From: Candidatus Omnitrophota bacterium
GTDB lineage: Bacteria; Omnitrophota; Gorgyraeia; Tantalellales; Tantalellaceae
DNA: 64,000 nucleotides
NCBI GenBank assembly: GCA_034723315.1
Contig: JAYEOV010000017.1
Coordinates: 6,612 to 70,611, forward strand
Direction of reading: 5' to 3'
Position numbers and translations under genes: made by a program. The notes under the pieces were generated by a model. That model made no database searches and had not been told where the DNA came from. It saw only the letters and a program-made list of their open reading frames with translations. This document shows, one piece after another, positions 2,620 through 55,244 of this stretch. Each line of letters starts with the position of its first letter. Position 1 is the stretch's first letter.

Positions 2620-4049
2620 TGGGTAGTGTTTCTAAGAAGTTATTGTCGAAGGTGAGGAAACTTCCGGATACGCCGGGGGTCTATAAGTTCCTCGATCCGA
2701 AGGGGCGCGTGATCTACGTGGGCAAGGCGAGGCGTCTCCGGCGCCGCGTCGCTTCTTATTTCCGGCCGGGCCGGGCGCGTGACAGCCGCCTGGAGCTTCT
2801 GGTAAGCGAGGTCCGTGACATAGCTTTTATCAGGGCTTCTTCCGAGGCGGAAGCGCTCATATACGAAGCCGGGCTTATAAAGGACCACAAACCCAGGTTC
2901 AATATCGATCTCAAGGACGACAAGTCGTATCCGTTCCTCAAGCTTACGGTGAACGAGAAATATCCACGGCTTTTTCTCACGCGCCGGAGGATCGGGGACG
3001 GAGCCCTTTATTACGGGCCGTATGTCAACGTGAAGCTCCTTAAAGCGGCGTTGTCCTTTATGAAAAAGGTGTTCCAGCTGAGGAGCTGCCGCGTCATGCG
3101 TAAATCCGTCTGTCTTGAGTATCACCTGGGCCAGTGTCTGGGGCCGTGCGAGAAGAAAATAACGGACAGGGAATACGCCGAAACGGTCGATCAGCTCAAG
3201 AAATTCCTTGAAGGGCGGAAGGACGATCTTATACGGTCGCTAGAGAAACAGATGCAGCGGTTTTCCGGGAGGAGGGAATATGAGAAGGCCCTGGCCGTGA
3301 AAAAACGTATTGAGGCCCTTACCGCGGTTCAGCAGCTTCACGACAGGTCGCAGTATCCCGTATACGGGGAGCTTGACGAACTGCAGAACGCGCTGGCCCT
3401 CCCGCGGATGCCGGTGAGGATAGAGTGTTTTGATATTTCAAACATTAGCGGGCAGCAGGCCGTGGGGTCCATGGTAAGGTTCATCGCCGGGAGCCCTCGT
3501 AAATCGGATTACCGGAGATTCCGGATAAAAGGGCGTGAAGGGATAGACGATTACGCCATGATACGCGAAGTCGTCCGCAGGAGGTATTCGCGTCTTATCG
3601 AGGAAGGGAAAGCGCTGCCGGACCTGGTCATGATAGACGGCGGCAAGGGGCATCTTTCCGTGGCAAAGGAGGAGTTCGCGCGGCTGGGGCTGAACGACGT
3701 GCCGGTGGTCAGCATAGCCAAGGAGCATAACCATCTTTACACCGGATCGCGGGAACGGCCCATAAGGCTTTCGCCGGGGTCGCGGCTGCTTCTTCTTGTC
3801 CAGAGGATCAGGGACGAGGCGCATCGTTTCGCCGTGACGTATCACAGGAGGCTGAGGCGCGCCGAGAAGTTCGATACCGGGCTCAGGCGGATAAAAGGTA
3901 TCGGTCCGGCGAGAGAGAGGATGCTCCTGGAGAAGTTCGGGAGCAGGGACAATATACGCCGGGCCTCGGCTGAAAACCTGAAAAAGGCCGGACTGGACGA
4001 ACGCACGGTCCGGACGGTCGTTGAATATTTTTCGGGGACGCCCCACTAG
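2616..4049 (+). CDS. uvrC: Excinuclease ABC subunit C (UvrC), short form
   Basis: GIY-YIG motif GVYKFLDPKGRVIYVGKARRLRRRV, a UVR domain (EYEKALAVKKRIEAL), the UvrC RNase H-like endonuclease region and a C-terminal HhH (RIKGIGPARERMLLEKFG). The start was chosen at the ATGA overlap with the murJ stop; the ORF track start is 2592. Confidence 0.85.
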   Translation: MMGSVSKKLLSKVRKLPDTPGVYKFLDPKGRVIYVGKARRLRRRVASYFRPGRARDSRLELLVSEVRDIAFIRASSEAEALIYEAGLIKDHKPRFNIDLKDDKSYPFLKLTVNEKYPRLFLTRRRIGDGALYYGPYVNVKLLKAALSFMKKVFQLRSCRVMRKSVCLEYHLGQCLGPCEKKITDREYAETVDQLKKFLEGRKDDLIRSLEKQMQRFSGRREYEKALAVKKRIEALTAVQQLHDRSQYPVYGELDELQNALALPRMPVRIECFDISNISGQQAVGSMVRFIAGSPRKSDYRRFRIKGREGIDDYAMIREVVRRRYSRLIEEGKALPDLVMIDGGKGHLSVAKEEFARLGLNDVPVVSIAKEHNHLYTGSRERPIRLSPGSRLLLLVQRIRDEAHRFAVTYHRRLRRAEKFDTGLRRIKGIGPARERMLLEKFGSRDNIRRASAENLKKAGLDERTVRTVVEYFSGTPH

Positions 4050-9295: not shown

Positions 9296-10843
9296 ATGTT
9301 GCGTATTTTTAACGTGAAAAAACACTGGAAGAAAATACTGCTTGCCGCTCTGTCCGGTATGCTTTGCTTTCTTGCCTTTCCGCCTTTCGAGTTCGCCCTT
9401 CTCGGGTGGGTATGCGTCATCCCTCTTTTATTCGCGATAAGAGGGAGCGGCCCCAGACGGGCTTTCTGGTACGCGTATCTGTCCGGCCTGGTATTTTTCG
9501 GATGTCTTCTGTCCTGGCTTGTGAACGTGACAGTCCCGGGGACGATCATACTCGTGCTGATCCTTTCGGCCTTTTACGGTCTTTTCGGGCTGGTAACCGG
9601 TATCGCTTTTAAATATTCGATGGACTTTCTGCTCCTGCCTTTTGTATGGGTGGTACTGGAATATATACGCAGTCATATCCTTACGGGTTTCCCCTGGGGG
9701 ATCCTGGGTTATTCACAGTACAGGAACATGAAGCTTATACAGATCGCCGATTTTACCGGGGCTTACGGCGTCTCCTTCGTGCTGACGGTCTTCAACGTCG
9801 CTCTTTTCACTCTGCTGATCAGGTCCAAAAGAAGGGTGCCCTGCATGGTGATCGCCCTGCTTTTCATGCTCATGTCCACCAGTTACGGGATGTACAGGCT
9901 CAACAACCTGAACAGCTGGGGCTATTCGCGCATGAGCGTTGTGCAGGGAAATATCCCACAGCAGATGAAATGGGACTCCCGGTACGCGGAAGAGATAATA
10001 GACGTCTACAGCGGCCTGACCAGGCAGGCGGCCAAGGATTCGCCAGACATGATAATATGGCCCGAGACGGCCTACCCGTACCTTGTCGGGGCGAGCGTTG
10101 ATCCCGCCGAAGAGATCAATTCGCTTGCCGCGGAAACGGGCATCCCGATCCTCGCGGGCATCGTTTCTTCCGGAAGTGCTGGTTACTATAACAGCGCGAT
10201 CCTTTTCACCGGCGGGAAAAAATTAAAAGAAGTATACCGCAAAATTCATCTTGTCCCTTTCGGGGAATACGTGCCGTTTGGCAGGTATTTTGATTTTTTG
10301 CGCGGTCACATAGATAAACCCATAGGCGATTTTGAAAGAGGCGATGAATACACTCTCTTTAAGGTCAAGTCCATGCAGTTCTCGGGGCAGAAAGGTGACG
10401 GTTCCGTTATGCGCCGTATGAACTTTTATAAGTTCGGCGTCCTGATATGCTTTGAGGACATATTCCCTTATCTGGCGAGGACCTTCGTTCGGGAAGGGGC
10501 CGGTTTCCTTGTGAATATCACCAACGACGCCTGGTTCGGGGAAACGGGAGCGCCCGCGCAGCATCTGCAGGCGTCGGTTTTCCGGGCGGTGGAGAACAGG
10601 GTGCCCGTCGTGCGTGCGGCCAATACGGGGATATCATGTTTTGTGGATTTCACGGGCGAGATCGTATCGATTCTGGAAGAGGAAGGGAAAAGTATCTTTG
10701 TCAGAGGCTACGACACAGCCGCCGTGAATATGTGCGCGAGGCGCACTTATTACACGCACTACGGCGATATTTTCGTCTATTTCTGCGGGTTCATCATCGT
10801 GCTCCTGGTAGTAATGGAGGCCTTTCTAGCGCGCAGAAAATAA
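9296..10843 (+). CDS. lnt: Apolipoprotein N-acyltransferase Lnt
   Basis: N-terminal polytopic membrane domain plus a CN-hydrolase domain (WPETAYPY; catalytic Cys in GVLICFED). Its 515 aa length is typical for Lnt. Confidence 0.85.
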   Translation: MLRIFNVKKHWKKILLAALSGMLCFLAFPPFEFALLGWVCVIPLLFAIRGSGPRRAFWYAYLSGLVFFGCLLSWLVNVTVPGTIILVLILSAFYGLFGLVTGIAFKYSMDFLLLPFVWVVLEYIRSHILTGFPWGILGYSQYRNMKLIQIADFTGAYGVSFVLTVFNVALFTLLIRSKRRVPCMVIALLFMLMSTSYGMYRLNNLNSWGYSRMSVVQGNIPQQMKWDSRYAEEIIDVYSGLTRQAAKDSPDMIIWPETAYPYLVGASVDPAEEINSLAAETGIPILAGIVSSGSAGYYNSAILFTGGKKLKEVYRKIHLVPFGEYVPFGRYFDFLRGHIDKPIGDFERGDEYTLFKVKSMQFSGQKGDGSVMRRMNFYKFGVLICFEDIFPYLARTFVREGAGFLVNITNDAWFGETGAPAQHLQASVFRAVENRVPVVRAANTGISCFVDFTGEIVSILEEEGKSIFVRGYDTAAVNMCARRTYYTHYGDIFVYFCGFIIVLLVVMEAFLARRK

Positions 10844-12315: not shown

Positions 12316-14967
12316 ATGGACCTCATAGTCACCCATAAGAACTCGGATTTTGACGCTTTGAGCTCACTTGTAGCCGCAAGCAAGCTTTATCCCAGGGCCA
12401 GGCTGCTGCTTCCCGGGTCCCAGGAAAGGTCTGTGCGCAGTTTTCTCTCGCTTATAAAGGATAAGGTTAAGATAGAGAGCGAGAAGACCTGTCGCATGGA
12501 TGACGTTACTCGCCTTGTGATCGTGGACAACCGCCACAGGTCGCGTATCGGGATCGCGGCAAAACTCCTGGATAAACAAGGCGTCAAAGTGCATGTGTAC
12601 GATCATCATCCCAGGACAAGGTTCGACATAAAAGCCGATAAGGACGTGTTCAAAGAGGTCGGGGCGACCGTTTCCATCCTGCTGGAGATACTGGCAAGGA
12701 AGAGAAAACTGTCTTTGAGCCCTCTGGAAGCCACGTTGATGCTTCTGGGGATATACGAAGAAACGGGATCCCTTTCTTACTCGACGACGACCAGGCTTGA
12801 AGTGGACATGGTCAGCAGTCTCCTGGAGATGGGGGCGAACCTGAACGCCGTCTCATCCTACCTGAACAGAGAACTCACCGGCACGGAACTCTCGACGCTG
12901 ATAGAACTGCTGGAATCGATAGAGATCGCGGACATAAACGGCATAAATGTGGCTTTCGCGCACGTGGACGCGGACCGTCTGGACGGTGAAATGGGGACTG
13001 TTGTCCACAAACTGCAGGAGGTGGAGAATTATCCCGTCCTTTTCGCGATGTTCCGATCCCACGGAAGGATAAAGATCCTTGCGAGGAGCCGTGTCAATAT
13101 CATAGATGTGAACAAGCTTCTCGCGCACTTTAACGGGGCCGGTCATTCCAGCGCGGCAAGCGCCCGAATAGAAGACAGTTCCCTGAGTGAGGTGAAGGAG
13201 GATATCCTGCGCATAATAGGCAGGATGACCGAACCGGAAGTTTATGCCCGGGATATAATGACATTTCCCGTAAAGACGGTCTCACAGGAAGAAAAGGTTG
13301 ACGATGTCCTTGAGAAACTTGACCGTTTCGGGCATAAAGGGGCCCCGGTGCTCAATGAGAACGCTGAACTGACGGGCATGATAACTCTTGGAGACCTGAA
13401 AAAAGCGCTGAAACACGGGATGGGGCACTCCAGGATCAAAGGATACATGTCAACACCTTTAATAACCGTTACTCCCGGAGTTCCGCTGTATGAGCTCAGA
13501 AAGATACTGCTGGAGAAGGATAAGGGGCGCATACCTGTGATCAAGGACAACAATCTGGTCGGGATAGTGACGAGAAATGACGTTTTGAAGAAGATACACG
13601 GCGCGTTTTTCCCGGAGAAACCGGGGGAGGAGATCGCCGTGTCGAACATGTCCGAGGAGATGAGCAAAGTGCTCCCCGGGAAGCTCATGAAGCTGATAAG
13701 GCTTATCGGCGCGGAAGGGGACTCGCGCGGGATGAATGTGTTCCTGGTCGGCGGTTTTGTGCGCGACCTCCTGCTCGGGAAAGAGAATTATGACCTTGAT
13801 ATGGTCGTCGAAGGGAACGCCATAAAGTTCGGAAGGGTCCTTGCCGAAAAGATAGGCGGGTCTCTGGTCGTCCATCGCAAGTTCGGGACGTCCACGCTGG
13901 TAAAGGAGTGGCCGAAATGGCTGGGGCCGTCCCTTCATCCCGACAACAAGTTCAAGATAGACATTGCCACCGCCAGAAAAGAGGTTTACGAAAGACCCGC
14001 GGCCTTGCCCACGGTAGAATTCAGTTCCTTAAGGGACGATGTTTACCGCCGGGATTTCACGATAAACGCCATGGCCGTTAACATCAATAAAAAGAATTTT
14101 GGCCTGTTCCTGGATTTTTTCGGGGGTATGAACGATCTGCGAAGAGGGGTCATAAGGGTGCTGCATGACAAGAGCTTTATTGACGATCCTACCCGGATCT
14201 TCCGGGCGGTGAGGTTCGAGCAGAGGTTCGGTTTTTCGATCGAGACGCATACCGAATACCTGATCACTCACGCGGTAAAACGGGAAATGTTCCGCAGGAC
14301 CGAGAACCAGAGGATAAGGGATGAGTTGATACTGATATTGAAGGAAAAGGATCCCGAAAAGGCCGTTTTCAGGATGAGGGAACTACACGAGCTTCGATTC
14401 ATTCATCCTGAACTGGTGCTGAAAAGGACCATCGGAAAGACCTTCAGCGATATGAGAAGACGCGTCAAATGGTATGAGGCTAAAGCCGCGGGAAAGCGCC
14501 AGCTTGACATCTGGCTCATGAACCTTATGGTCATACTGGACAAGCTCACAGCGGAGCAGACAGAGGAAGTCCTTAGAAAGTTCGTGTTTACCAGAAGCGT
14601 AAGCATAAGGCTGCGGTCTTTCAAGAAAGAGGCGGATAAAGCCATAAAAAAACTTTCTTCCGGGAAAAGGATGATGCCGAGCCGGATCTATAGCCTCCTG
14701 GAGCCGTTTTCGCACGAAGTCACGCTCTGCGCTATGGCTAAGACAAAGTCCGAGGTGGCCAGAAGGCGCATCAGAAGGTTTTTTACCGAATATAACGGAA
14801 CGACACTGCTCGTCAAGGGGGAAGACATCAAAAGGGAAGGTGTAAAACCCGGCCCGAAGTACAAAAAGATACTGCGGCGGATCCTTTACAAAAAACTGGA
14901 CGGGAAACTCCTGTCGAGGAAAGATGAGATCGGGTACATGCGGGAGGTGATCGGTAAGGGGAAATAA
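12316..14967 (+). CDS. Multidomain DHH/DHHA1 phosphoesterase - tandem CBS - poly(A) polymerase/CCA-adding nucleotidyltransferase-family fusion protein
   Basis: 883 aa. N-terminal DHH (VYDHHP) and DHHA1 regions, two CBS domains (DIMTFPVKTV...; YMSTPLITV...), then a PolyA_pol head domain (FLVGGFVRDLLLGKENYDLDMVVEG; RRDFTINAMAV) and a C-terminal tRNA-NT tail. Confidence 0.75.
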   Translation: MDLIVTHKNSDFDALSSLVAASKLYPRARLLLPGSQERSVRSFLSLIKDKVKIESEKTCRMDDVTRLVIVDNRHRSRIGIAAKLLDKQGVKVHVYDHHPRTRFDIKADKDVFKEVGATVSILLEILARKRKLSLSPLEATLMLLGIYEETGSLSYSTTTRLEVDMVSSLLEMGANLNAVSSYLNRELTGTELSTLIELLESIEIADINGINVAFAHVDADRLDGEMGTVVHKLQEVENYPVLFAMFRSHGRIKILARSRVNIIDVNKLLAHFNGAGHSSAASARIEDSSLSEVKEDILRIIGRMTEPEVYARDIMTFPVKTVSQEEKVDDVLEKLDRFGHKGAPVLNENAELTGMITLGDLKKALKHGMGHSRIKGYMSTPLITVTPGVPLYELRKILLEKDKGRIPVIKDNNLVGIVTRNDVLKKIHGAFFPEKPGEEIAVSNMSEEMSKVLPGKLMKLIRLIGAEGDSRGMNVFLVGGFVRDLLLGKENYDLDMVVEGNAIKFGRVLAEKIGGSLVVHRKFGTSTLVKEWPKWLGPSLHPDNKFKIDIATARKEVYERPAALPTVEFSSLRDDVYRRDFTINAMAVNINKKNFGLFLDFFGGMNDLRRGVIRVLHDKSFIDDPTRIFRAVRFEQRFGFSIETHTEYLITHAVKREMFRRTENQRIRDELILILKEKDPEKAVFRMRELHELRFIHPELVLKRTIGKTFSDMRRRVKWYEAKAAGKRQLDIWLMNLMVILDKLTAEQTEEVLRKFVFTRSVSIRLRSFKKEADKAIKKLSSGKRMMPSRIYSLLEPFSHEVTLCAMAKTKSEVARRRIRRFFTEYNGTTLLVKGEDIKREGVKPGPKYKKILRRILYKKLDGKLLSRKDEIGYMREVIGKGK

Positions 14968-14999
14968 TAAGGGTAAAGGAACGAGGTCTGGTCAAAACG

Positions 15000-15281
15000 G
15001 TGAATGTCGGCATATTGACGATAGATATCCATTTAAGAGAAAGCGGATGCCTTAAGGATAAGCGAAGGGTGCTCAGAAGGCTGAAAGACAGGATGCGGAA
15101 CAATTTTAATGTTTCCGTTGCCGAGATCGGTGACGCTGATAAATGGCAGAAGGCGGTGCTTGCGGTAGCCGTGGTTTCCAAAGGAAAAAAACACGTTTCG
15201 GAATGTCTTGACAAAATAATGAACTTTGTCAGGGAAGACAAAAGGATAACAGTGGTAGATTATTCGGCCGAAGTGCTTTAG
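15000..15281 (+). CDS. DUF503 (YlxP-like) protein
   Basis: 93 aa (GTG start). It resembles the small DUF503 proteins encoded next to rbfA in nusA-infB-rbfA operons. It sits immediately upstream of rbfA here. Confidence 0.55.
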   Translation: MNVGILTIDIHLRESGCLKDKRRVLRRLKDRMRNNFNVSVAEIGDADKWQKAVLAVAVVSKGKKHVSECLDKIMNFVREDKRITVVDYSAEVL

Positions 15282-32138: not shown

Positions 32139-34273
32139 ATTTATACGGCATTTCAAATATCTTAATTGCAATAACTAGTTCGGGTATCGCGCTATTTGTT
32201 TATGTTAAAGGCTATAGAAGTAAATTATGCAAAATATGGTCAGTTTTTGCTTTATGCGTTGCTATTTATGGATTTGGCGCCTATATGGCAGCTGGGGCAA
32301 AAAATCATGATTCTGCTTTTTTTTGGTGGCAAATTTCGTATGTCGGCGTAATAATGCTGCCTGCTTTATTTCTGCATTTTGTTTATGTTTTTCTTGATAT
32401 CAGGAAAACATTTTTAATAAAAATTGTTTATCTGGTAACACTTGTTATTTTGGCTACGGATATTTTTAATAAGCAACTATTTATTGGCAATGTAAGTTTG
32501 TTATTCAAAAATTCTGAACTATTTCAACCAGCGTGGTGGGTTTATCCTCCAGGCCCTATACATATTTTCTATACACTTTTTTTATATGCGGGGATACTTA
32601 TATATGCTCACATTAAATTAATCAGGGCCTATAAAAGATCTGAAAGATCGAAGCAGAACCAAATCAGATATTTTTTTCTTGCAACTACATTAGGTTTTAT
32701 AGGAGGAGGCACTTCTTTTTTGCCTTGTTCTGGTATAAATATCTATCCTGTTTTTAATATAACAGTACCATTGTATCCTCTAATTATGACTTACGCTATT
32801 ATTCGTCATCAGTTGATGGATATTGAAGTTATAATTAAAAAAACTATTGTCTTTGCATCATTATTTATTATTCTTTTTGGTGTTTTTGTAGGAATAACCC
32901 TTATTACTCAAGAATTGATTGCGGAAGGAAGGATTTTTGGGTTAGCGATAAGCGCTCTTATTATTATTTTTTCGGTTCGTCCGCTTGAGGATTTACTGGT
33001 AAGGGGTACCGACAAATATTTATTCCAGAAGAAATATGATTACAGGCAATTGTTGAGAACTTTTTCTGATGAGGTGCTTACAGTTCTCGATCTTGATATG
33101 CTTGTAAATCTTACGGTTAATAAACTTGTGGAGACAATGAAACTTTTCAACGCGGCTATGTTGCTTCACGATGAAAAAAATGAGGAGTACAGGATCGTGT
33201 CATCAACAGGTTTGGAAGACGTTGAGTTTAAATTAAAGGATGATGAAGAGATAATAGTATATTTGCGGAAAAACAGGCAACATATTCTGTTTGAAAGCGA
33301 GGATGGACAAATATCTTTAAGCGGTAATATTAAGAGGAAGATAAGTGGTTTACGGTCATCCATGGTCATCCCACTGTTTCATCACAAGGATATGGTGGGG
33401 ATATTGTCTCTGGGAAAGAAAAAATCAGACGAAGAGTTCACGCAGGATGATTTTGACATACTTCTGCCGCTTGCCAGAACGCTTTCCATAGCAATAGCCA
33501 ATGCCAGGCTTTTTGAGAAACTTTCTGTAGCCCAGGCACAGGCGGCACAAAGAGAAAAAATGGCCGTTATAGGGACGCTTTCGGCCGGGATCAACCACGA
33601 GATATGTAATCCCCTGGGGATAGCCAGGGGGCAATGCGAGATGTTTCTTTTAAATCTTAAAGAAGGCCTGTATGCGGGTAAGGATCCTGAAGATCTGCTC
33701 GAAAAGGCGAAACTAATAATGCAGAAGGTCATCGATGAGACTGACAGGGCCACGGTCATAACCAGAAAGCTTTCTTCGTTCGCCAAACCCGCGAAAGGAA
33801 AGCTGGAGGGCAACGTCCGGTTGAAAAAGGAAATAGAAGAAGTAGCTTCGCTTGTGGAGCACGATTTGAGGCTGGACAATATACTGATAGTCAGGGAGAT
33901 ACAGCCGGATCTGCCGTATATCGCGGCTGACCGGAAACAGGTACAGGAAATATTTTTCAATATCATAATAAATGCCGCGCAGTCGATCGTCTCCGGCGGA
34001 AAAATAACGATCCGGGCCAAAAGTGACGATAAAAAGGTCTATGTGGAGATAGAAGATACGGGTGTCGGTATCAAAAAGACCAATTTAAACCAGGTATTCA
34101 ATCCCTTTTTTACGACTAAGGACCCGGGAAAAGGTACCGGATTGGGGCTTTTTCTTGTGAAGCAGATCGTTGAAAGGAATAAAGGGCGTATCTCCGTTCA
34201 GAGCGAACAGGGAAAGGGCGCCTGTTTTCGTCTTGTGTTTAAAGCGATCGTTCCTGAAAAGGTAAAGATTTGA
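32135..34273 (+). CDS. Sensor histidine kinase with an N-terminal 7TM-type membrane domain, a GAF domain, HisKA and HATPase_c
   Basis: Seven predicted TM helices in the first ~250 aa, a GAF-like region (MVIPLFHHKDMVGILSLGKKKSDEEFTQDDFDIL), an H-box (AGINHEICNPLG), and N/G boxes (IIINAAQS; DTGVGI; GTGLGL). Confidence 0.8.
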   Translation: MNLYGISNILIAITSSGIALFVYVKGYRSKLCKIWSVFALCVAIYGFGAYMAAGAKNHDSAFFWWQISYVGVIMLPALFLHFVYVFLDIRKTFLIKIVYLVTLVILATDIFNKQLFIGNVSLLFKNSELFQPAWWVYPPGPIHIFYTLFLYAGILIYAHIKLIRAYKRSERSKQNQIRYFFLATTLGFIGGGTSFLPCSGINIYPVFNITVPLYPLIMTYAIIRHQLMDIEVIIKKTIVFASLFIILFGVFVGITLITQELIAEGRIFGLAISALIIIFSVRPLEDLLVRGTDKYLFQKKYDYRQLLRTFSDEVLTVLDLDMLVNLTVNKLVETMKLFNAAMLLHDEKNEEYRIVSSTGLEDVEFKLKDDEEIIVYLRKNRQHILFESEDGQISLSGNIKRKISGLRSSMVIPLFHHKDMVGILSLGKKKSDEEFTQDDFDILLPLARTLSIAIANARLFEKLSVAQAQAAQREKMAVIGTLSAGINHEICNPLGIARGQCEMFLLNLKEGLYAGKDPEDLLEKAKLIMQKVIDETDRATVITRKLSSFAKPAKGKLEGNVRLKKEIEEVASLVEHDLRLDNILIVREIQPDLPYIAADRKQVQEIFFNIIINAAQSIVSGGKITIRAKSDDKKVYVEIEDTGVGIKKTNLNQVFNPFFTTKDPGKGTGLGLFLVKQIVERNKGRISVQSEQGKGACFRLVFKAIVPEKVKI

Positions 34274-34287
34274 AAAGAGGTGGATTA

Positions 34288-34662
34288 ATGAAGAAACCGA
34301 ATATATTATCAATTGACGATGAGCCGAGTTTTACGGTTCTTTTAAAAGAATATTTTGAACCGAGGGGATACGATATAGATATTACGTCGGCCGGTGATAA
34401 GGGGTTAGAGCTGCTGCATGAAAAAAAATATGATGTTGTCCTGCTTGATCTGCGGATGGCAGGGCTTGACGGTGGCGAGGTTATGGCGGAGATCAACCGG
34501 TCAAACGCGGGCACAAAAATAATTTTTATAACGGCTTATAATGATTCAGGAAAGACCAGAGAACGATTGATGGGGGAAGGGGCATATGCGTTTATGGAGA
34601 AGCCGATAACAAGTCTTAAGCGCCTTGAGGAACTGGTTAATAGAGCTGTGAAGGCGGATTAA
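34288..34662 (+). CDS. Single-domain response regulator (CheY-like receiver)
   Basis: NILSIDDEPSF...DVVLLDLRMAGLDGGEV...KIIFITAYNDS (phospho-acceptor Asp in LLDLRM). Confidence 0.8.
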   Translation: MKKPNILSIDDEPSFTVLLKEYFEPRGYDIDITSAGDKGLELLHEKKYDVVLLDLRMAGLDGGEVMAEINRSNAGTKIIFITAYNDSGKTRERLMGEGAYAFMEKPITSLKRLEELVNRAVKAD

Positions 34663-34676
34663 CGGGAGGGGATAGC

Positions 34677-35051
34677 ATGTTAAGGTTGCTTATCGTTGAC
34701 GATGAGGTGGACATATGTGATTTCGTTAAGAGTTTCTTTAAGGATAGAAATTTTGAGGTTTTTACCGCTAATAACGGCAAACAGGCGGTCGACATGGTGA
34801 AATCAGAGAAGCCCGAGATTGTCCTGATGGACATAAGGATGCCTGTCATGGACGGTATGGAGGCTTTGAAGGAGATCCGCAAGCTTGACGGCGCGATTAA
34901 GGTAATAATGATCACCGCGATCGAGGATGAGAAAAAGGCGGAGGAGGCAAAGCACCATGGGGCTATTGAGTATATTACAAAACCGCTGCTGCTTGAACAG
35001 CTGGAAAGAACTGTGTTCACTATCGCGGAACAGATAAAAATGAATTCCTGA
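34677..35051 (+). CDS. Single-domain response regulator (CheY-like receiver)
   Basis: LLIVDDEVDICDF...IVLMDIRMPVMDGMEALKEIRK...KVIMITA. Confidence 0.8.
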   Translation: MLRLLIVDDEVDICDFVKSFFKDRNFEVFTANNGKQAVDMVKSEKPEIVLMDIRMPVMDGMEALKEIRKLDGAIKVIMITAIEDEKKAEEAKHHGAIEYITKPLLLEQLERTVFTIAEQIKMNS

Positions 35052-35095
35052 ATAAGGGATAGTTTCCTTGTATAGAAAAGAAAGCAGAGGAGAAT

Positions 35096-36418
35096 ATGTC
35101 ATACGATGATAACTGGTTGAGATTGCAGGACTGGATCGTTGAAAAGATGAAGAATTGCGACGGCGCTCTGATCCCCACGGGTTCGGGCAGCGTCCAGATG
35201 CGGCAGGAGCCTGAACTGGATTACCAGTATTTTCTGGAAAACGCTTCACGGACAATGATACGATTCAGGAAACCGGAACACCTTATAAGGATGATAGTGC
35301 GGGTGATCGACGAGCAGGTAAAGGTCTCCCACACGGCGATGCTGCTTTATAAAGAAGAGAGAGATTCGTTCATACTTATTGACAGTAAAGGGGGGGAAGG
35401 GGTTAAGCTCCCGATCGGGTTCATACGTATGACATTTGACAATCCGCTTATCCGCCTTTTTAACGAGCGGCATAATTTTAAGATATCGGAAATAGGCGCG
35501 ATTGAGTACAAAGAGCTTCTTGATGTCATCCAGAGGGACGAAGAAGTCAAAAAAAATAAAGACCTCGTCGAACTTATGGAACTGAGCATCAGGCAGATGG
35601 AGCTTTTAAAGGCGAATATATGTATACCGATATATTACAAAAAAGACCTGATGGGAATATTCGTGCTGGGAAAAAAACTTTCGAATATGAAATTCTCCAG
35701 ACAGGAGGTCGGGTTTTTTACGACTCTGGCTAACGATGTGGCAATGGCCATTGCAAATGCCCAGTTGATACAGGACTTGCAGGAAAAGATATTCGAGGTC
35801 CATGAGCTCTACGAAAGAGAACATCAGGTATTCATTCACACTGCTATTTCGCTGGCGGCCGCAATAGACGCCCGGGATCCTTATACCCATGGTCACACTG
35901 AGCGTGTGACAAAATACGCTCTGGCGATCGCCGAAGAGCTGGAAGACATACCCGAGGCGCAGGCTTACAGAAATTTCAGGGAAACGCTGCATATCTCGGC
36001 CCTGCTCCATGATGTCGGGAAGATCGGCGTTCCGGACAGCATACTTAAAAAGAAAGGCCAGTTGACCAGGGAGGAATACGAAATGGTCAAGGAGCATTCA
36101 TTGACCGGCGCGGCTATTCTTTATCCGATCAGGGAACTGGGGGATATCGCGAAGGAAGTGCGGGCTCATCATGAGATGTACGACGGCGGCGGGTATCCGG
36201 ATGGTTTGAAAGGGGAGGAAATACCCTTCATTGCGCGCATCATTTCGGTATCTGATACCTTTGACGCGATAACAAGCGACAGGCCTTACCGTCAGAAAAA
36301 GATGGCTGAAATCGCCGTCCAGATAATCAAGGATAATTCGGGAAGTCAGTTCGATCCTATTGTAGTGAGCGCTTTTCTTCTGGCTTACAGGAAGGGGAAG
36401 CTCGGTAATAATACGTAA
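35096..36418 (+). CDS. GAF-domain HD-GYP phosphohydrolase (putative c-di-GMP phosphodiesterase)
   Basis: HD motif (HTERVTKYALAIAEEL...LHDVGKIGVP) and the GYP motif (HHEMYDGGGYPDGLKGEEIP), preceded by a GAF-like sensor region. Confidence 0.8.
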   Translation: MSYDDNWLRLQDWIVEKMKNCDGALIPTGSGSVQMRQEPELDYQYFLENASRTMIRFRKPEHLIRMIVRVIDEQVKVSHTAMLLYKEERDSFILIDSKGGEGVKLPIGFIRMTFDNPLIRLFNERHNFKISEIGAIEYKELLDVIQRDEEVKKNKDLVELMELSIRQMELLKANICIPIYYKKDLMGIFVLGKKLSNMKFSRQEVGFFTTLANDVAMAIANAQLIQDLQEKIFEVHELYEREHQVFIHTAISLAAAIDARDPYTHGHTERVTKYALAIAEELEDIPEAQAYRNFRETLHISALLHDVGKIGVPDSILKKKGQLTREEYEMVKEHSLTGAAILYPIRELGDIAKEVRAHHEMYDGGGYPDGLKGEEIPFIARIISVSDTFDAITSDRPYRQKKMAEIAVQIIKDNSGSQFDPIVVSAFLLAYRKGKLGNNT

Positions 36419-36451
36419 GGTTGGGTTAACCGGCCCAATTTCGAATGCTCT

Positions 36452-36480
36452 ATTGACAAAAATTAATATTAGTGTAAAAT
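36452..36480 (+). promoter_or_regulatory. Candidate sigma70 promoter TTGACA-N17-TAAAAT for the metE leader
   Basis: ttgacaaaaattaatattagtgtaaaat. It predicts a 5' leader of about 225 nt before the metE ATG. Confidence 0.4.
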
Positions 36481-36663
36481 TTTAGGAAACTAATTTGAAA
36501 CAATATCTTTAACCGGATAGACAAAGGAAGTTTCCGTGAGAATCGGGACGCTGCCCAGCAACGGTGATCTTGATATGAGTTAAAAGTCAAGGAGCCCGGT
36601 CTATTGGCTATTCCGGAAAGTACCTTCTGGGGTAAGGGAAAAGATATTATGATAAGTAGTATG

Positions 36664-36688
36664 CCGACCCCAGGGGGTCGGTTTTTTT
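36664..36688 (+). terminator. Leader-embedded intrinsic terminator / attenuator hairpin (CCGACCCC..GGGGTCGG + T7) about 25 nt upstream of the metE start
   Basis: ccgaccccagggggtcggttttttt, read directly. A terminator sitting between a promoter and the start codon implies riboswitch-type or attenuation control. Confidence 0.55.
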
Positions 36689-36711
36689 ATTTGCGTAAAG
36701 GAGGAGAAAAA

Positions 36712-38913
36712 ATGAAAACATATGCATATGGCTTTCCAAGATTAGGTAAGAAAAGAGAGTTCAAATCAGCTATCGAGGATTACTGGAAAGGGAACATCAG
36801 CGAGGATAAGCTTATATCATGGATGTTCAGGCTGGAAAAGCAAAGACTTTCCGAATATAAAAAATACGTTGATTTATTCCCAAAAGGTGAGTTTACATTT
36901 TACGACAACATGTTTGATATGGCGTTAATGTTCGGCGTGTATAAGGCAAAAGGGTTGAACCGGTATTTTTCTTTTGGCAGAGGCAGGAATGCTCTTGAGA
37001 TGAAAAAGTATTTCAACACGAACTATCATTACCTCGTGCCTGTTATTAAAAAGGGGCAAAAGTTCAGGGTGGCTTGGAACAAACCACTTGTATATCATGA
37101 AAAATCTTCCCAAAAAAGAAAACCGGTTGCCATCATGGGTCCTTATACGTTTCTTAAGCTTAGCAGGGTTGAAGGGAGTTTTGATAAGACTTTCAATGAA
37201 CTTTGCGCGGCGTATAAAAAGTTGTTTGTGCAGTTTGAGAAGGCCGGAATAACTTCCGTGCACATGGAGGATCCCGCTTTTTGTCTCGACGTGACTGCTA
37301 AAGAAATAAAGGCTATTGTAAAGAATTACAAAAAGATGATTTCCCGTGATCTGGAAGTTAATCTCATAACCTATTATGATAGCGTGGATTTTCTTAAAGA
37401 ATTGTATAAGATTCCGTTCGCTGCGATCGGGCTTGATTTTGTATCCGGGGAGAGTAACATTGCCAATCTTGAGAAGACCGGCTTTCCGGAGGGGATGAAC
37501 CTGGTCTGCGGCATCGTTGACGGCCGTAATGTGGGTCGGTCCGATATAATGGCGAAGGTGCGTCTCTTGAAAAGAATAAAAAAAACCGCAAGGATCAATG
37601 ACGACAGAATATATGTCTCTAACAGCGCGCCACTCTTTCACCTGCCCATATCTCTTGATAATGAAACTAATATGAGCGCAAAACATAAAAACATTCTCAG
37701 TTTCGCTAAGGAAAGACTGTATGAACTTGGCCTTATACCCAAAGCTTATAGTGGTGATACGAAGGAAGCGGAATTATGGAGCAAAGCGGTCAAGGAAAGC
37801 CAACCTGTAAAACCGGGAAAGGTCTTCGATACGGTTTCACTTAAAGAAAGCGTTTACTCCCGAAGAAAAAAAGTTCACCAGGAGGAACTCGATCTTCCGT
37901 TCTTTCCCACCACCACGATAGGTAGTTTTCCTCAGGATAGTGAAGTGAGAAAAATGAGGCTGGATTATCGTAAAGGCAGATTATCTAAAACAAAATACAA
38001 GAGCTTCATAGGCGGTAGGATAAAAGATCTTGTGAAAAAAGAGGAAGAAATAGGACTTGATGTCCTTGTGCACGGTGAGTTCGAAAGAACGGACATGGTT
38101 GAATTCTTTGCGCAGAAACTGGATGGTTTTGTAACGACAGAAAGCGGCTGGATCATATCTTACGGAACAAGGGTCTACAGACCACCTATAGTAGTAGATA
38201 AGATCGGCAGGACAAAACCGCTTACAGCAGGGGAGATAACACATGCCGATCATTTAACGCATAAACCTGTTAAGGGTATTTTTACGGGACCGGTAACTAT
38301 ACTTGCCTGGGGTTTTTGTGTGAGGACAGATCCAATATACAAAGTAGCCTTTGAACTTGCGAAAGCGCTGAACGAAGAGGCAAAAGACCTTGTCAAGAAA
38401 GGTATAAAAATAATACAGGTGGATGAACCCGCGATAAAGGAATTTTCCCCTATAAAGAAAAGAATGAAGAAGGCATATTTTGGCTGGGCAATAAGAAGCT
38501 TTAACATGGTGACTAAGCTTCCCGAAAGGGTTCAAATCCATACTCACATGTGTTATTCGGAGTTTGCCGAGATCATTGATTGGATCCTGAAGATGAATTT
38601 CGATGTTATAACAATAGAAACAGCGAGAGAGAAGGGTAAAGTCCTTGAAACTTTTTTCAGAGCTGGATTTAAACGTGACATAGGTCCCGGGTTATGGGAT
38701 ATTCACTCAAAATATCCCGCTGAGGAAAGGACAATAAAAACAATATTAAATAAAAGCATAAAGTTTTTCGGCCCGGAACATATCTGGATGAACCCGGATT
38801 GCGGGCTGAAGACCAGGAATTGGGAAGAAACAGAATTATCGCTTGAACGCATTGTAAAAATAGCGAAACAATACAGAAAAAGGTTACTAAAGGGGTCAAG
38901 TCTTAAAATTTAA
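36712..38913 (+). CDS. metE: Cobalamin-independent methionine synthase MetE; the last 6 codons (SSLKI*) are supplied by the left terminal inverted repeat of the downstream IS element
   Basis: About 734 aa with a two-barrel architecture. The C-terminal catalytic barrel carries the Zn ligands (H...C.E...C; IHTHMCYSE, DCGLKTR). The start is the ATG at 36712 after a GGAGGAG SD. The ORF-track start at 36604 would read through the leader terminator. Confidence 0.85.
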   Translation: MKTYAYGFPRLGKKREFKSAIEDYWKGNISEDKLISWMFRLEKQRLSEYKKYVDLFPKGEFTFYDNMFDMALMFGVYKAKGLNRYFSFGRGRNALEMKKYFNTNYHYLVPVIKKGQKFRVAWNKPLVYHEKSSQKRKPVAIMGPYTFLKLSRVEGSFDKTFNELCAAYKKLFVQFEKAGITSVHMEDPAFCLDVTAKEIKAIVKNYKKMISRDLEVNLITYYDSVDFLKELYKIPFAAIGLDFVSGESNIANLEKTGFPEGMNLVCGIVDGRNVGRSDIMAKVRLLKRIKKTARINDDRIYVSNSAPLFHLPISLDNETNMSAKHKNILSFAKERLYELGLIPKAYSGDTKEAELWSKAVKESQPVKPGKVFDTVSLKESVYSRRKKVHQEELDLPFFPTTTIGSFPQDSEVRKMRLDYRKGRLSKTKYKSFIGGRIKDLVKKEEEIGLDVLVHGEFERTDMVEFFAQKLDGFVTTESGWIISYGTRVYRPPIVVDKIGRTKPLTAGEITHADHLTHKPVKGIFTGPVTILAWGFCVRTDPIYKVAFELAKALNEEAKDLVKKGIKIIQVDEPAIKEFSPIKKRMKKAYFGWAIRSFNMVTKLPERVQIHTHMCYSEFAEIIDWILKMNFDVITIETAREKGKVLETFFRAGFKRDIGPGLWDIHSKYPAEERTIKTILNKSIKFFGPEHIWMNPDCGLKTRNWEETELSLERIVKIAKQYRKRLLKGSSLKI

Positions 38914-39951
38914 CTTTAGCTTGCGTGTTTAAGTATTAAATGGTATGATGTTTGATCATGGCACGACCTTTACGAATTGAATATCCGGGCGCCTGGTATC
39001 ACGTGATGAACCGCGGCAGGCGAAGAGAGCAGATTTTTTTTGATGAAAAAGATCGAGTTCTTTTTGTGGATATATTAGGAGATTGCACTAGACTTTTTAA
39101 TCTGGAAATACACGCCTATTCGTTGATGCCAAACCACTATCATTTATTAGTACGCACGCCTATCGCGAACCTTTCAAGAGCAATGAGACACCTGAACGGG
39201 GTTTATACACAAAAGATCAATTATCGTCATAAGTATGAAGGCAGTCTTTTTAAGGGAAGGTTTAAATCAATAGTCATAGAAGAAGAATCATACTTTCTTG
39301 AACTATTAAGGTATATTCACAGGAATCCATTAAAGGCGAAGATCGTGGAAAAGATCATTGAGCATAAATGGACAAGCCACAGGGCATATATGATAAAAAA
39401 AGAGCGGCCCGAATGGCTGAAAGTAAATACAGCTTTAATAAAATTCAGCCAGCATGAGAATGCGGCAAAAAGGAAACTGGACGCGTTTGTGCGGGAAAAA
39501 GTACCGGTGGAAATAGAACGTATATTAGATGGAATAAAGTGGCCGGCGATACTGGGCGGAAAGCAGTTTCAGGAAAAGATCAAAGAAAAAATAAAGGGAG
39601 AAAAGATCGACATCAGGGAAGTGCCGCAACATAAAGAGATCTGTAGTAGATTAACCGCGAAGGATGTTGCTGAGGTGCTGGTGAGAGAGCAAAAGAAGTG
39701 GGATGAAAATGTTTTCAGCGGACGGAAGAAGAGGATTTATACCGGGAAGAGACGTGCGTTTGTGTACGTGTGCCGGGAATATCTATATGCGGTGAACAGA
39801 GATATATGCGAAGCTCTGGGAGATATTTCTTCTGCCGCCGTATCGATTTTGTATACGCAAGCCGTGGAAAAGGTGAAAAAGAAAGAGGATTTGTACGAAG
39901 AAGTAAAGGGGATCGTTGATTTGCTAAAGTTAAATTTTAAGACTTGACCCC
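38892..39951 (+). mobile_element. IS200/IS605-like element (about 1060 bp) with perfect 29-bp terminal inverted repeats GGGGTCAAGTCTTAAAATTTAACTTTAGC (38892-38920; reverse complement at 39923-39951), carrying one Y1 transposase gene
   Basis: Both TIRs read directly. The left TIR overlaps the metE stop. The right TIR overlaps the transposase stop and, on the other strand, the stop of the XRE-cupin gene. Confidence 0.75.
38958..39947 (+). CDS. IS200/IS605-family (COG1943-like) HUH Y1 transposase with a C-terminal extension
   Basis: HUH motif SLMPNHYHLLV and a catalytic Tyr region YIHRNPLKAKIV. 330 aa and AT-rich. Confidence 0.75.
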   Translation: MARPLRIEYPGAWYHVMNRGRRREQIFFDEKDRVLFVDILGDCTRLFNLEIHAYSLMPNHYHLLVRTPIANLSRAMRHLNGVYTQKINYRHKYEGSLFKGRFKSIVIEEESYFLELLRYIHRNPLKAKIVEKIIEHKWTSHRAYMIKKERPEWLKVNTALIKFSQHENAAKRKLDAFVREKVPVEIERILDGIKWPAILGGKQFQEKIKEKIKGEKIDIREVPQHKEICSRLTAKDVAEVLVREQKKWDENVFSGRKKRIYTGKRRAFVYVCREYLYAVNRDICEALGDISSAAVSILYTQAVEKVKKKEDLYEEVKGIVDLLKLNFKT

Positions 39952-40503
39952 CCTAATTGCAGGCGGTGCGATAATGCATATCGCCTGGGCCTCGATTTTA
40001 GCTTTGTTTTTAAAGGTATGGGGCAGGGAGGCGTCAAAGTACAGGCTGTCGCCGTTTTTTAACGTGTAGGTTTTATCGCCTACAGCAGCTTCGAGGTTCC
40101 CCGAGATCACGTATATGAATTTTTCCACCCCTGTCTTGTTCTGTTCTTTCTGTGTCTGGCCTCCGCCGGAGATCTTCATCATAAGCGGCATGATCTTTTT
40201 ATCAAAAGTTTTCGTGACAAGCAGCTCGTACTTTGCCTTACGCGTGTGGATGAAATGTTCCGTCCGTTTATCCTGTGAGACCACCTCCACGGTCTTGGAT
40301 TTGTCCTCGATCTCGCGGTAAAGTTCCGTGATAGAAGTGTTAAGGGCTTTACAAATGCGGTTGTGGGAATCGAGGGTGCCGGTCATCTTGTCGTTTTCCA
40401 TGCGGCTCAGCGTGGCAAGGGCTACTCCGCTTTTTCCAGAAAGTTCTTCCAGCGTCATTTCACGTTCTTTACGTAACTGGCGGATCCTTTTCCCTATTTT
40501 CAT
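39937..40503 (-). CDS. XRE-family HTH transcriptional regulator with a C-terminal cupin domain
   Basis: N-terminal HTH (IRQLRKEREMTLEELSGKSGVALATLSRMEN) and C-terminal cupin_2 (GNLEAAVGDKTYTLKNGDSLYFDASLPHTFKN). It is the only convincing minus-strand gene in the window. Confidence 0.8.
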   Translation of the reverse strand: MKIGKRIRQLRKEREMTLEELSGKSGVALATLSRMENDKMTGTLDSHNRICKALNTSITELYREIEDKSKTVEVVSQDKRTEHFIHTRKAKYELLVTKTFDKKIMPLMMKISGGGQTQKEQNKTGVEKFIYVISGNLEAAVGDKTYTLKNGDSLYFDASLPHTFKNKAKIEAQAICIIAPPAIRGVKS

Positions 40504-48918: not shown

Positions 48919-48988
48919 CCCTGATGCTCAGGGAGCGAAAACAAAAAGAAGCCCGGAGCGATACAGGGCAAAAAGTTTTTCAGATTCC

Positions 48989-53867: not shown

Positions 53868-55190
53868 TTGCCGGTGAACGGTGGTCCATTAACTTTAACT
53901 GTGAAAGAACCAAAATTCGCGATAAAAACCCTGGGTTGCAAGGTCAACCAGTACGAGGAACAGGTCCTTAGGGAGAACCTTCAGCGTTTCGGTTTCAGCG
54001 AGAGCGAGCCCCGGACCGCTGACATTTTTATTGTCAATTCATGCACTGTCACCGGCAAGGCCGACCTGAAAACAAGACGATTGATACGGCAGGTCAAAAG
54101 AGGGAACCCGGAGATAAAGATCTTTGTCACCGGCTGTTACGCCGTCTTTGAAAAGGATATAGAAAGGCTCAGTTACATGCCGGAAGTGTTTAAGGTGATC
54201 CCCGCGAAAGATAAGCTGCGCCTGCCGGTCATGATCAAGGATCTCTTCGGCATAAAGCGCGGGGACATGGGCGTGAGGGAGCAGATATCCCGGTTCAACT
54301 CTCATAGCAGGGCTTTCCTGAAAATACAGGATGGATGCGATCAAAACTGCGCCTATTGTAAGGTAAGCCTTGTCAGGGGCCCTTCAAGGTGCAGGGACGA
54401 ACGGGAAGTCATAGGAGAGGTAACGCGACTTTCAAAAGCGGGGTATAGGGAGATCGTCCTGACCGGTATATGTCTCGGCTCCTGGAAAGGGAGCAAGGGG
54501 CAGAGTATTTCACGTCTTTTAAAGGAGATGGACGGAATGGACGGGATGTTCAGAATACGCCTCAGCTCTATCGAACCGGATTTAATAGATGATCTCCTGA
54601 TCGGAACGATCGCAGGGTCAAGGAGGATCTGCAGGCACCTCCATATCCCTCTTCAGAGCGGGTCTGACCGGGTATTGAAAAGGATGAACAGAAGATATGA
54701 TACGGAACGGTTCAGGGAACTTATCCGGAATATACGAGGACAGATGCCTTTTGCCGGGATCACCATGGATATCATCACGGGTTTCCCGGGCGAGGACGGG
54801 ACGGATTTTTACAGGACCATGATGCTTGTCAAGGAGACAAAACCATCACGGCTTCATGTTTTTAAATACAGCGACAGGGAGGGAACAAGGTCCTTCGATC
54901 TAGAGGGAAAAGTCCACGTTCGAACAGCGAAAGAACGGGCAAAACGTTTGATAGAGGCTGGTAAAGAGCTTCAGGCCGGGTTTTGCCGCAATTTTGCGGG
55001 TAGAAGAGTAGAAGTGCTTGTAGAGAAAAAGAACGGGACCATGCTCGAGGGGTATACAGGCGAGTATGTCAGGGCGAGAATGGAAGGGTATCAAGCATCT
55101 GAAGGTGATCTGATAAGCATAGAAGTGAATGATATTGATGAAGAAACCCCTTGTGTAGTGAACAAAAAGGGGTCAAGTCTTAAAATTTAA
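53868..55190 (+). CDS. mtaB: MtaB-like tRNA methylthiotransferase (MTTase N-domain, radical SAM, TRAM); the last codons (KGSSLKI*) are supplied by a MITE insertion
   Basis: TLGCKVNQYE N-domain, radical SAM CDQNCAYC, and a C-terminal TRAM domain. A GTG at 53901 is an alternative start. The C-terminal tail is identical to the MetE tail. Confidence 0.75.
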   Translation: MPVNGGPLTLTVKEPKFAIKTLGCKVNQYEEQVLRENLQRFGFSESEPRTADIFIVNSCTVTGKADLKTRRLIRQVKRGNPEIKIFVTGCYAVFEKDIERLSYMPEVFKVIPAKDKLRLPVMIKDLFGIKRGDMGVREQISRFNSHSRAFLKIQDGCDQNCAYCKVSLVRGPSRCRDEREVIGEVTRLSKAGYREIVLTGICLGSWKGSKGQSISRLLKEMDGMDGMFRIRLSSIEPDLIDDLLIGTIAGSRRICRHLHIPLQSGSDRVLKRMNRRYDTERFRELIRNIRGQMPFAGITMDIITGFPGEDGTDFYRTMMLVKETKPSRLHVFKYSDREGTRSFDLEGKVHVRTAKERAKRLIEAGKELQAGFCRNFAGRRVEVLVEKKNGTMLEGYTGEYVRARMEGYQASEGDLISIEVNDIDEETPCVVNKKGSSLKI

Positions 55191-55244
55191 CTTAACAAGC
55201 ATATAGGGGTCAAATCGTTAAGTTAAATTTTAAGACTTCACCCC
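55169..55244. mobile_element. 76-bp MITE derived from the IS200/IS605-like element at 38892-39951 (left end GGGGTCAAGTCTTAAAATTTAACTTAAC 55169-55196; inverted right end 55217-55244 with 1 mismatch)
   Basis: Both ends read directly. The 22 terminal bp are identical to the TIR of the full element and there is no internal transposase. Confidence 0.75.

Follow-up and report, generated by a model that had tools for sequence, protein, structure and literature searches.

A probable TIRtron in Candidatus Omnitrophota whose terminal inverted repeats also supply the stop codons of neighbouring genes

Introduction

Why should a gene for an HUH/Y1 transposase be enclosed by perfect terminal inverted repeats (TIRs)? 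The question is raised by a 64,000-nucleotide stretch of Candidatus Omnitrophota DNA (GenBank assembly GCA_034723315.1, contig JAYEOV010000017.1, positions 6,612 to 70,611; hereafter the window), in which a transposase gene and its two repeats form a 1060-bp feature between metE and an XRE-cupin regulator gene. The original prediction filed this feature under the IS200/IS605 family and treated its TIRs as an anomaly, since members of that family classically lack TIRs and use subterminal hairpins. In IS608 and ISDra2 these hairpins are non-inverted, and such elements often carry tnpB. Our analysis indicates that the feature is probably a TIRtron, that is, a RAYT-like HUH/Y1 gene (encoding a TIRYT protein of TnpA_REP subclass 2.1) bracketed by its family’s own inverted repeats. 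The contradiction with IS200/IS605 biology disappears once the protein is recognised as a TIRYT.

The REPs that flank RAYT genes are short imperfect palindromes with a GTAG tag and are abundant in the genome. RAYT-like genes with flanking inverted repeats were named TIRtrons, and their proteins TIRYTs, by Di Nocera, De Gregorio and Rocco in 2013 (PMC3733652), who described a common GGGGWSAS end motif, repeats that overlap gene ends and, for some members only, repeat families found singly, as dimers and in groups. Quentin et al. (2018; PMC6006769) placed 20 of 26 TIRYTs in TnpA_REP subclass 2.1, which carries Bac_DnaA_C or helix-turn-helix (HTH) C-terminal extensions related to Bac_DnaA_C, HTH_23 or HTH_28. 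They also reported that the TIRYT repeat is unlike a DnaA box and that no REP-like sequences lie near subclass 2.1 genes. TIRs are therefore a published defining feature of this class (PMC3733652; PMC6006769) and not an oddity of the window copy.

Results

Perfect inverted repeats delimit a 1060-bp unit

The two repeat arms (GGGGTCAAGTCTTAAAATTTAACTTTAGC; Table 1) are 29 nt each, 100% complementary and 1002 nt apart, as originally described. The inverted-repeat search tolerated three mismatches, and none of 100 shuffles searched with the same tolerance gave any match. The core common to all repeat copies is the first 23 nt, GGGGTCAAGTCTTAAAATTTAAC. No second open reading frame (ORF) occurs within the unit, nor does tnpB, and a DnaA-box-like sequence is absent from the repeat, in agreement with PMC6006769.

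Three stop codons lie in the arms. The left arm encodes G-S-S-L-K-I-stop and provides the TAA of metE (38911-38913), whereas the right arm encodes G-V-K-S-stop for the XRE-cupin gene (39937-39939, minus strand) and supplies the TGA of the transposase gene (39945-39947). These two convergent genes thus overlap by 11 nt (39937-39947) inside the right repeat. All three assignments bear out the original prediction. As read from the sequence, the repeat has stops in five of six frames, and repeat copies fused to gene 3’ ends therefore survive. The accompanying claim of an AT-rich element in a GC-rich genome did not hold up: the element has 40.8% GC, at the 10th percentile of 1060-nt windows, against 47.9% for the window, and the adjoining metE likewise has 40.8%.

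Consensus scans for promoters and terminators between 38700 and 40200 returned nothing relevant, and no terminator-like site was found between the convergent TIRYT and XRE-cupin genes. A possible extended -10 element, TGgTATGAT, was seen by eye 9 nt upstream of the ATG, with no Shine-Dalgarno sequence; its position suggests that the TIRYT mRNA is leaderless or near-leaderless. At the Rfam gathering score, the window contains one tRNA only and the element nothing.

The enclosed protein is closest to RAYT enzymes

The transposase-like protein is an HUH/Y1 enzyme closest to RAYT and not to IS200/IS605 TnpA. The original call of an HUH transposase is sound: Pfam Y1_Tnp matches residues 12-122 (E 6.7e-13), and all 24 aligned homologues keep the HUH motif H60-Y61-H62 and the Y119 of RYIHRNP. 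The family assignment has to be changed. Among NCBIfam models, the top match is REP-associated tyrosine transposase (REP_Tyr_transpos, NF047646) with 72.2 bits, under its equivalog cutoff of 80, while the IS200 model NF033573, with a cutoff of 55, reaches only 25.6 bits. A profile of the 24 family sequences finds E. coli TnpA_REP (PDB 4ER8) at E 1.6e-4 over residues 11-142, and IS200/IS605 transposase chains in the PDB at E ~0.4-0.6 only. The AlphaFold model (pLDDT 85.9) likewise has 4ER8 as its top Foldseek match (E 8.6e-7, target TM 0.75), with weaker matches to the ISDra2 and IS608 transposases (E 2e-5 to 1e-3).

Beyond the catalytic domain, the family profile matches the domain-IV region of five DnaA structures (E 0.002-0.014); the best of these, 3PVP (E 0.0018), aligns with profile residues 250-327. 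Pfam Bac_DnaA_C (PF08299) is matched individually by 19 of the 24 family members, although the window protein alone fails to reach E 0.1. A Y1 core with a Bac_DnaA_C/HTH-like C-terminal extension and no classical REPs nearby is what subclass 2.1 looks like, and the protein probably belongs there, as judged from domain architecture and repeat motif and not from tree placement.

The 329-residue reading frame starts at the ATG common to full-length homologues; starting from the TTG at 38952 it has 331 residues. The NCBI annotation gives 313 residues from Met17, 16 codons late, and so drops the conserved N-terminus MARPLRIEYPGAWYHV (window 38958-39005). An identical protein in a Candidatus Omnitrophota metagenome-assembled genome (MAG) is labelled just “transposase”. 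The practical value of the present assignment is correct labelling, given that such Omnitrophota MAG genes are annotated as “transposase” only.

Table 1 Features of the TIRtron, its repeat copies and adjoining genes (window positions).
Feature	Position	Strand	Remarks
Left terminal inverted repeat	38892..38920	+	Holds last six codons and stop of MetE
Right terminal inverted repeat (reverse complement of left)	39923..39951	-	Holds stops of TIRYT gene (+) and XRE-cupin gene (-)
TIRYT gene, 329 aa	38958..39947	+	HUH/Y1 domain ~12-140; helical linker; DnaA-domain-IV-like HTH ~250-327
Possible extended -10 element	38940..38948	+	By eye only; consensus scan negative
metE	36712..38913	+	Conserved part ends ...AKQYRKR; non-conserved tail ends in repeat-encoded GSSLKI*
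XRE-cupin regulator gene	39937..40503	-	Orthologous part ends at residue 183 (window base 39955)
mtaB	53868..55190	+	Stop and last six codons supplied by doublet; ends ...KKGSSLKI*
Left arm of 76-nt inverted doublet (REPIN/MITE-like)	55169..55197	+	Last six codons and stop (55188-55190) of MtaB
Partial terminal tag GGGGTCAAATCG in doublet loop	55207..55218	+	
Right arm of doublet, GGGGTGAAG...	55218..55244	-	One mismatch in 23-nt core

The repeat belongs to the element and not to its host genes

The repeat is element-derived, not host-gene-derived, because further copies of its core lie elsewhere in the window and on other contigs and because the orthologues of MetE and the XRE-cupin regulator have no such tails. 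Two further copies of the core form an inverted doublet directly 3’ of mtaB (55169-55244), where they give MtaB the same repeat-encoded GSSLKI* tail as MetE. A single strand of the doublet pairs into a ~29-bp hairpin, with folding energies of -24.0 kcal/mol (z -11.4) for one strand and -25.4 kcal/mol (z -12.1) for the other. A metagenome scan located the core in two more contigs, our loci L001 and L002. One repeat copy in L001 terminates a yidD-like ORF as ...RVKS*, and L002 has a homologous gene (75% amino acid identity) with the same flanking repeat in another genomic context. The element is exactly 1060 nt long in both the window and L002. Their genes share 73.8% nucleotide identity (53.6% at third codon positions) and their repeat cores are identical despite this divergence, so the core is under selection. 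An exact scan for the 23-nt core across GTDB species genomes gave 0 matches. When the seven repeat copies are aligned, conservation begins at GGG(G) and the flanks are unrelated; no target duplication is visible at the seven junctions read. An extra motif match at 48921 (minus strand) was rejected as chance, as it lacks extended similarity.

Orthologue alignments, which the original prediction had named as a check, point the same way. MetE orthologues read ...YRKK followed by 0-12 variable residues, and none of the 53 examined ends in GSSLKI. Among the 120 XRE-cupin homologues listed (window protein included), 87 have 183 residues and 73 end in ...PPAL; GVKS is found in the window protein only. 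In a 78%-identical relative the gene closes with CTT TAA; at that point the window reads ATT AGG and then enters the repeat. The native stop is thus lost, and the protein continues as R and then the repeat-encoded GVKS* (...PPAI-RGVKS). Of the four repeat ends that face outward in the window, three overlap gene 3’ ends, and three host proteins of the window are lengthened by 5-6 residues in this way, which may pass for true C-terminal variation. Host ORFs terminate inside the repeat in the wider family too, on the left side in 11 of 56 cases and on the right in 5 of 56.

The repeat architecture is shared by distant relatives

We fetched 80 loci with relatives from Omnitrophota, Desulfobacterota, Nitrospirota, Planctomycetota, Gammaproteobacteria and other phyla, and analysed the flanks of the 65 full-length homologue copies with enough flanking sequence. 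Inverted repeats starting (A)AGGGGTCAAGTCT are present in most relatives’ loci. A GGGGTCAAGTCT-type motif is found inverted on both sides of 41 of the 65 copies, on the left only in 16, on the right only in 2 and on neither side in 6. The left motif typically starts 44-59 nt upstream of the start codon. The right repeat usually includes the transposase stop codon, and in 23 of 43 cases the outer end of its motif falls exactly 3 nt beyond that codon, since AGACTTGACCCC includes the TGA. The consensus of 57 left arms is GGGGTCAAGTCT, and conservation of these outer 12 nt extends from Omnitrophota to Desulfobacterota, Nitrospirota and Gammaproteobacteria. The motif was counted 205 times in 1.02 Mb of loci, compared with 18 in a shuffle. 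Of the left arms, 77% have A as their eighth base; the published GGGGWSAS therefore looks too narrow, and the window element is no outlier.

For roughly half of the relatives, the “TIR” itself is a REP-like hairpin. Among 73 left arms, 52% have a tag that pairs with downstream sequence through a perfect stem of 5 bp or more, as opposed to 6% of controls. The family stem is typically GTCAAG-loop-CTTGAC, a pairing that the window repeat does not have. These hairpins depart from PMC6006769, which reports no REP-like sequences near subclass 2.1 genes. Modest additions to the published account of TIRYTs come from this survey, namely the conserved outer 12 nt, the stop codon inside the right repeat and the REP-like hairpins.

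Relatives show signs of movement

Three other genomes contain two copies each, which are 99.6% (L019), 97.2% (L054) and 98.8% (L079) identical, and each pair ceases to match within 2-28 nt of the repeats. Four other loci (L054, L057, L065 and L069) have miniature elements of 61-243 nt with the repeats at their ends. At L065, from a betaproteobacterial MAG, four of them (197-243 nt) follow one another downstream of the TIRtron (12511-15278).

At two loci, direct repeats of host sequence are seen on both sides of the TIRtron: L032 (3704-3943 and 4992-5230) and L061 (93-359 and 1553-1819). They are 237 and 268 nt long, respectively, and ~96% identical; those at L032 abut the element’s repeats and include the 3’ end of a host ORF. 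Both look like a very long target duplication.

Partial tandem copies of the termini stand just outside the repeats at L019 (~9690-9715) and L054 (~9915-9951), and at L079 (~89-134, 2384-2429 and 3460-3510), where GACCCTTTTAAGCGCCCC occurs three times. The partial tag GGGGTCAAATCG in the loop of the window doublet is comparable to these. Such tandem partial termini may have been left by repeated nicking and rejoining.

Discussion

A probable TIRtron in a phylum new to this kind of element

The window element fits the published TIRYT class on every tested point except the eighth motif base. It has an HUH/Y1 RAYT-like protein longer than RAYTs, GGGG-starting inverted repeats around the gene, a repeat that overlaps the gene’s 3’ end, and further repeat copies in the inverted doublet. 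It differs in that both repeats also terminate neighbouring host genes and in its host, as Omnitrophota were outside the 2013 survey (PMC3733652). It is thus an example of an already described kind in a host phylum new to that kind.

With the RAYT/REP/REPIN systems (E. coli TnpA_REP; Pseudomonas REPINs) the element shares its best structural and sequence match to the catalytic domain, a gene placed between inverted copies of a short repeat, and inverted doublets elsewhere that form long hairpins. In contrast to those systems, the window repeat lacks a GTAG tag and is no palindrome when single, the protein has twice the length and an extra DNA-binding domain and stays under the NF047646 cutoff, and some relatives’ genomes have duplicated gene copies. 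What it shares with IS608 and ISDra2 is the HUH/Y1 fold, the catalytic residues and, presumably, single-strand “peel and paste” chemistry.

Every catalytic or recognition step of the mechanism that we propose is inferred by analogy with TnpA_REP and IS608/ISDra2. The TIRYT protein would recognise the terminal repeat sequence, with the DnaA-like domain perhaps contributing to recognition of the terminal 12-mer. Tyr119 would nick single-stranded DNA at or a few nucleotides from the GGGG end and form a covalent link, while His60 and His62 would hold a metal ion. Any segment between two inverted repeats could then be copied or moved, be it the whole gene unit or a miniature doublet such as 55169-55244, and on the lagging-strand template doublets may fold into hairpins. 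Repeat copies next to variable host 3’ ends, or in place of them, would be tolerated; in the window they terminate metE, the XRE-cupin gene and mtaB. We know of no biochemical test of any TIRYT enzyme; the 1060-bp unit and the nearby 76-nt natural mini-substrate would make a convenient test system.

Weighing the alternatives

Several observations weigh against a TIRtron in this form. The outer end of the repeat, GGGGTCAA, fits GGGGWSAS at seven of eight positions, the eighth being A and not C or G. The D-H-T-T-V residues that read the DnaA box are not conserved in the C-terminal domain. A hairpin in the single window repeat was rejected, as its folding energies, -1.5 kcal/mol (z +0.26) for one strand and -0.1 kcal/mol for the other, are no better than those of shuffles. 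The 64-kb window has one gene copy and one doublet only, and we found no empty site or excision product for the window copy. Relatives occur in 25 of 72,556 plasmid records, with N-terminal matches only (query coverage at most 58% among the matches listed). This near-absence from plasmids suits a RAYT-like lifestyle with mostly vertical inheritance better than it suits an active insertion sequence. It also favours the idea that the gene is a domesticated, immobile RAYT-like host gene, vertically inherited, whose repeats are REP-like 3’-end elements for mRNA stabilisation or termination. RAYT groups generally resemble housekeeping genes (PMC5581495), and that idea can further draw on the single gene copy, on the frequent overlap of repeat ends with gene 3’ ends and on the long hairpin right after mtaB. 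We nevertheless regard it as rather unlikely, given the near-identical second units in three other genomes with identity confined repeat-to-repeat, the different context of the L002 homologue, the position of the window copy at a synteny breakpoint (below) instead of a conserved position, and the lack of any intrinsic-terminator signature in the consensus scan.

A canonical IS200/IS605 insertion sequence that acquired TIRs would account for the Y1_Tnp domain and for the fold matches to ISDra2 and IS608. This is very unlikely: the IS200 model scores far under its cutoff, the REP transposase model gives the higher score (72.2 against 25.6 bits), tnpB is missing, and a protein of 329 residues with a DnaA-like domain contrasts with the ~125-150 residues of the solved transposases matched. 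Moreover, the repeat architecture is present in 57 of the 65 homologue copies and is therefore ancestral to the family, not an accident of the window copy. There is next to no chance that the repeat is a coincidence or native MetE C-terminal coding sequence mirrored downstream. Its overlap with coding sequence is all that speaks for this, against the empty shuffle control, the same core after mtaB, in L001 and in L002, the missing GSSLKI end in MetE orthologues and the PPAL ends of XRE-cupin homologues. A TIRtron thus accounts best for the locus.

History of the site

The claim of a single clean insertion between metE and the XRE-cupin gene does not survive comparison with relatives. When the two outer flanks are joined by hand, neither metE nor the XRE-cupin gene has a stop codon. 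Relatives whose XRE-cupin gene is 78-81% identical have the order uvrA, XRE-cupin, response regulator, 7TM histidine kinase, HD-domain gene and two response regulators. The window orthologues keep this order (uvrA 83% amino acid identity, XRE-cupin 78%, HD gene 80%, two regulators 65-68%), but metE and the TIRtron replace the regulator-kinase pair (window 34270-40503 versus L083 and L085). No nucleotide-level empty site was found among the MetE and XRE-cupin relatives, the latter of which carry other downstream genes. The closest MetE orthologues (65-69% identical) sit in different neighbourhoods, and a conserved association of metE with the TIRYT gene was rejected, since the two nearest metE loci have no TIRYT neighbour. 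With changed gene content between conserved neighbours, the locus is therefore a rearrangement junction, or synteny breakpoint. We infer that deletion or recombination at repeat copies is its likeliest cause.

A further possibility is that the HUH enzyme carried adjacent host DNA by one-ended, IS91/Helitron-like transposition, or that repeat-mediated recombination rearranged the region. It is suggested by the metE cassette (B12 riboswitch and metE) and the TIRtron, both of 40.8% GC, which together replace the regulator-kinase pair; we consider it improbable. Were it true, the host duplications at L032 and L061 and the tandem ends at L019, L054 and L079 would be footprints of a replicative mechanism.

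Upstream of metE, a candidate adenosylcobalamin (AdoCbl, B12) riboswitch was detected on the plus strand at 36500-36647 (40.8 bits, E 2.4e-6, under the Rfam gathering score of 50). A terminator-like hairpin, GCCGACCCCAGGGGGTCGG, followed by a T run lies at ~36663-36690, just upstream of the metE start at 36712.

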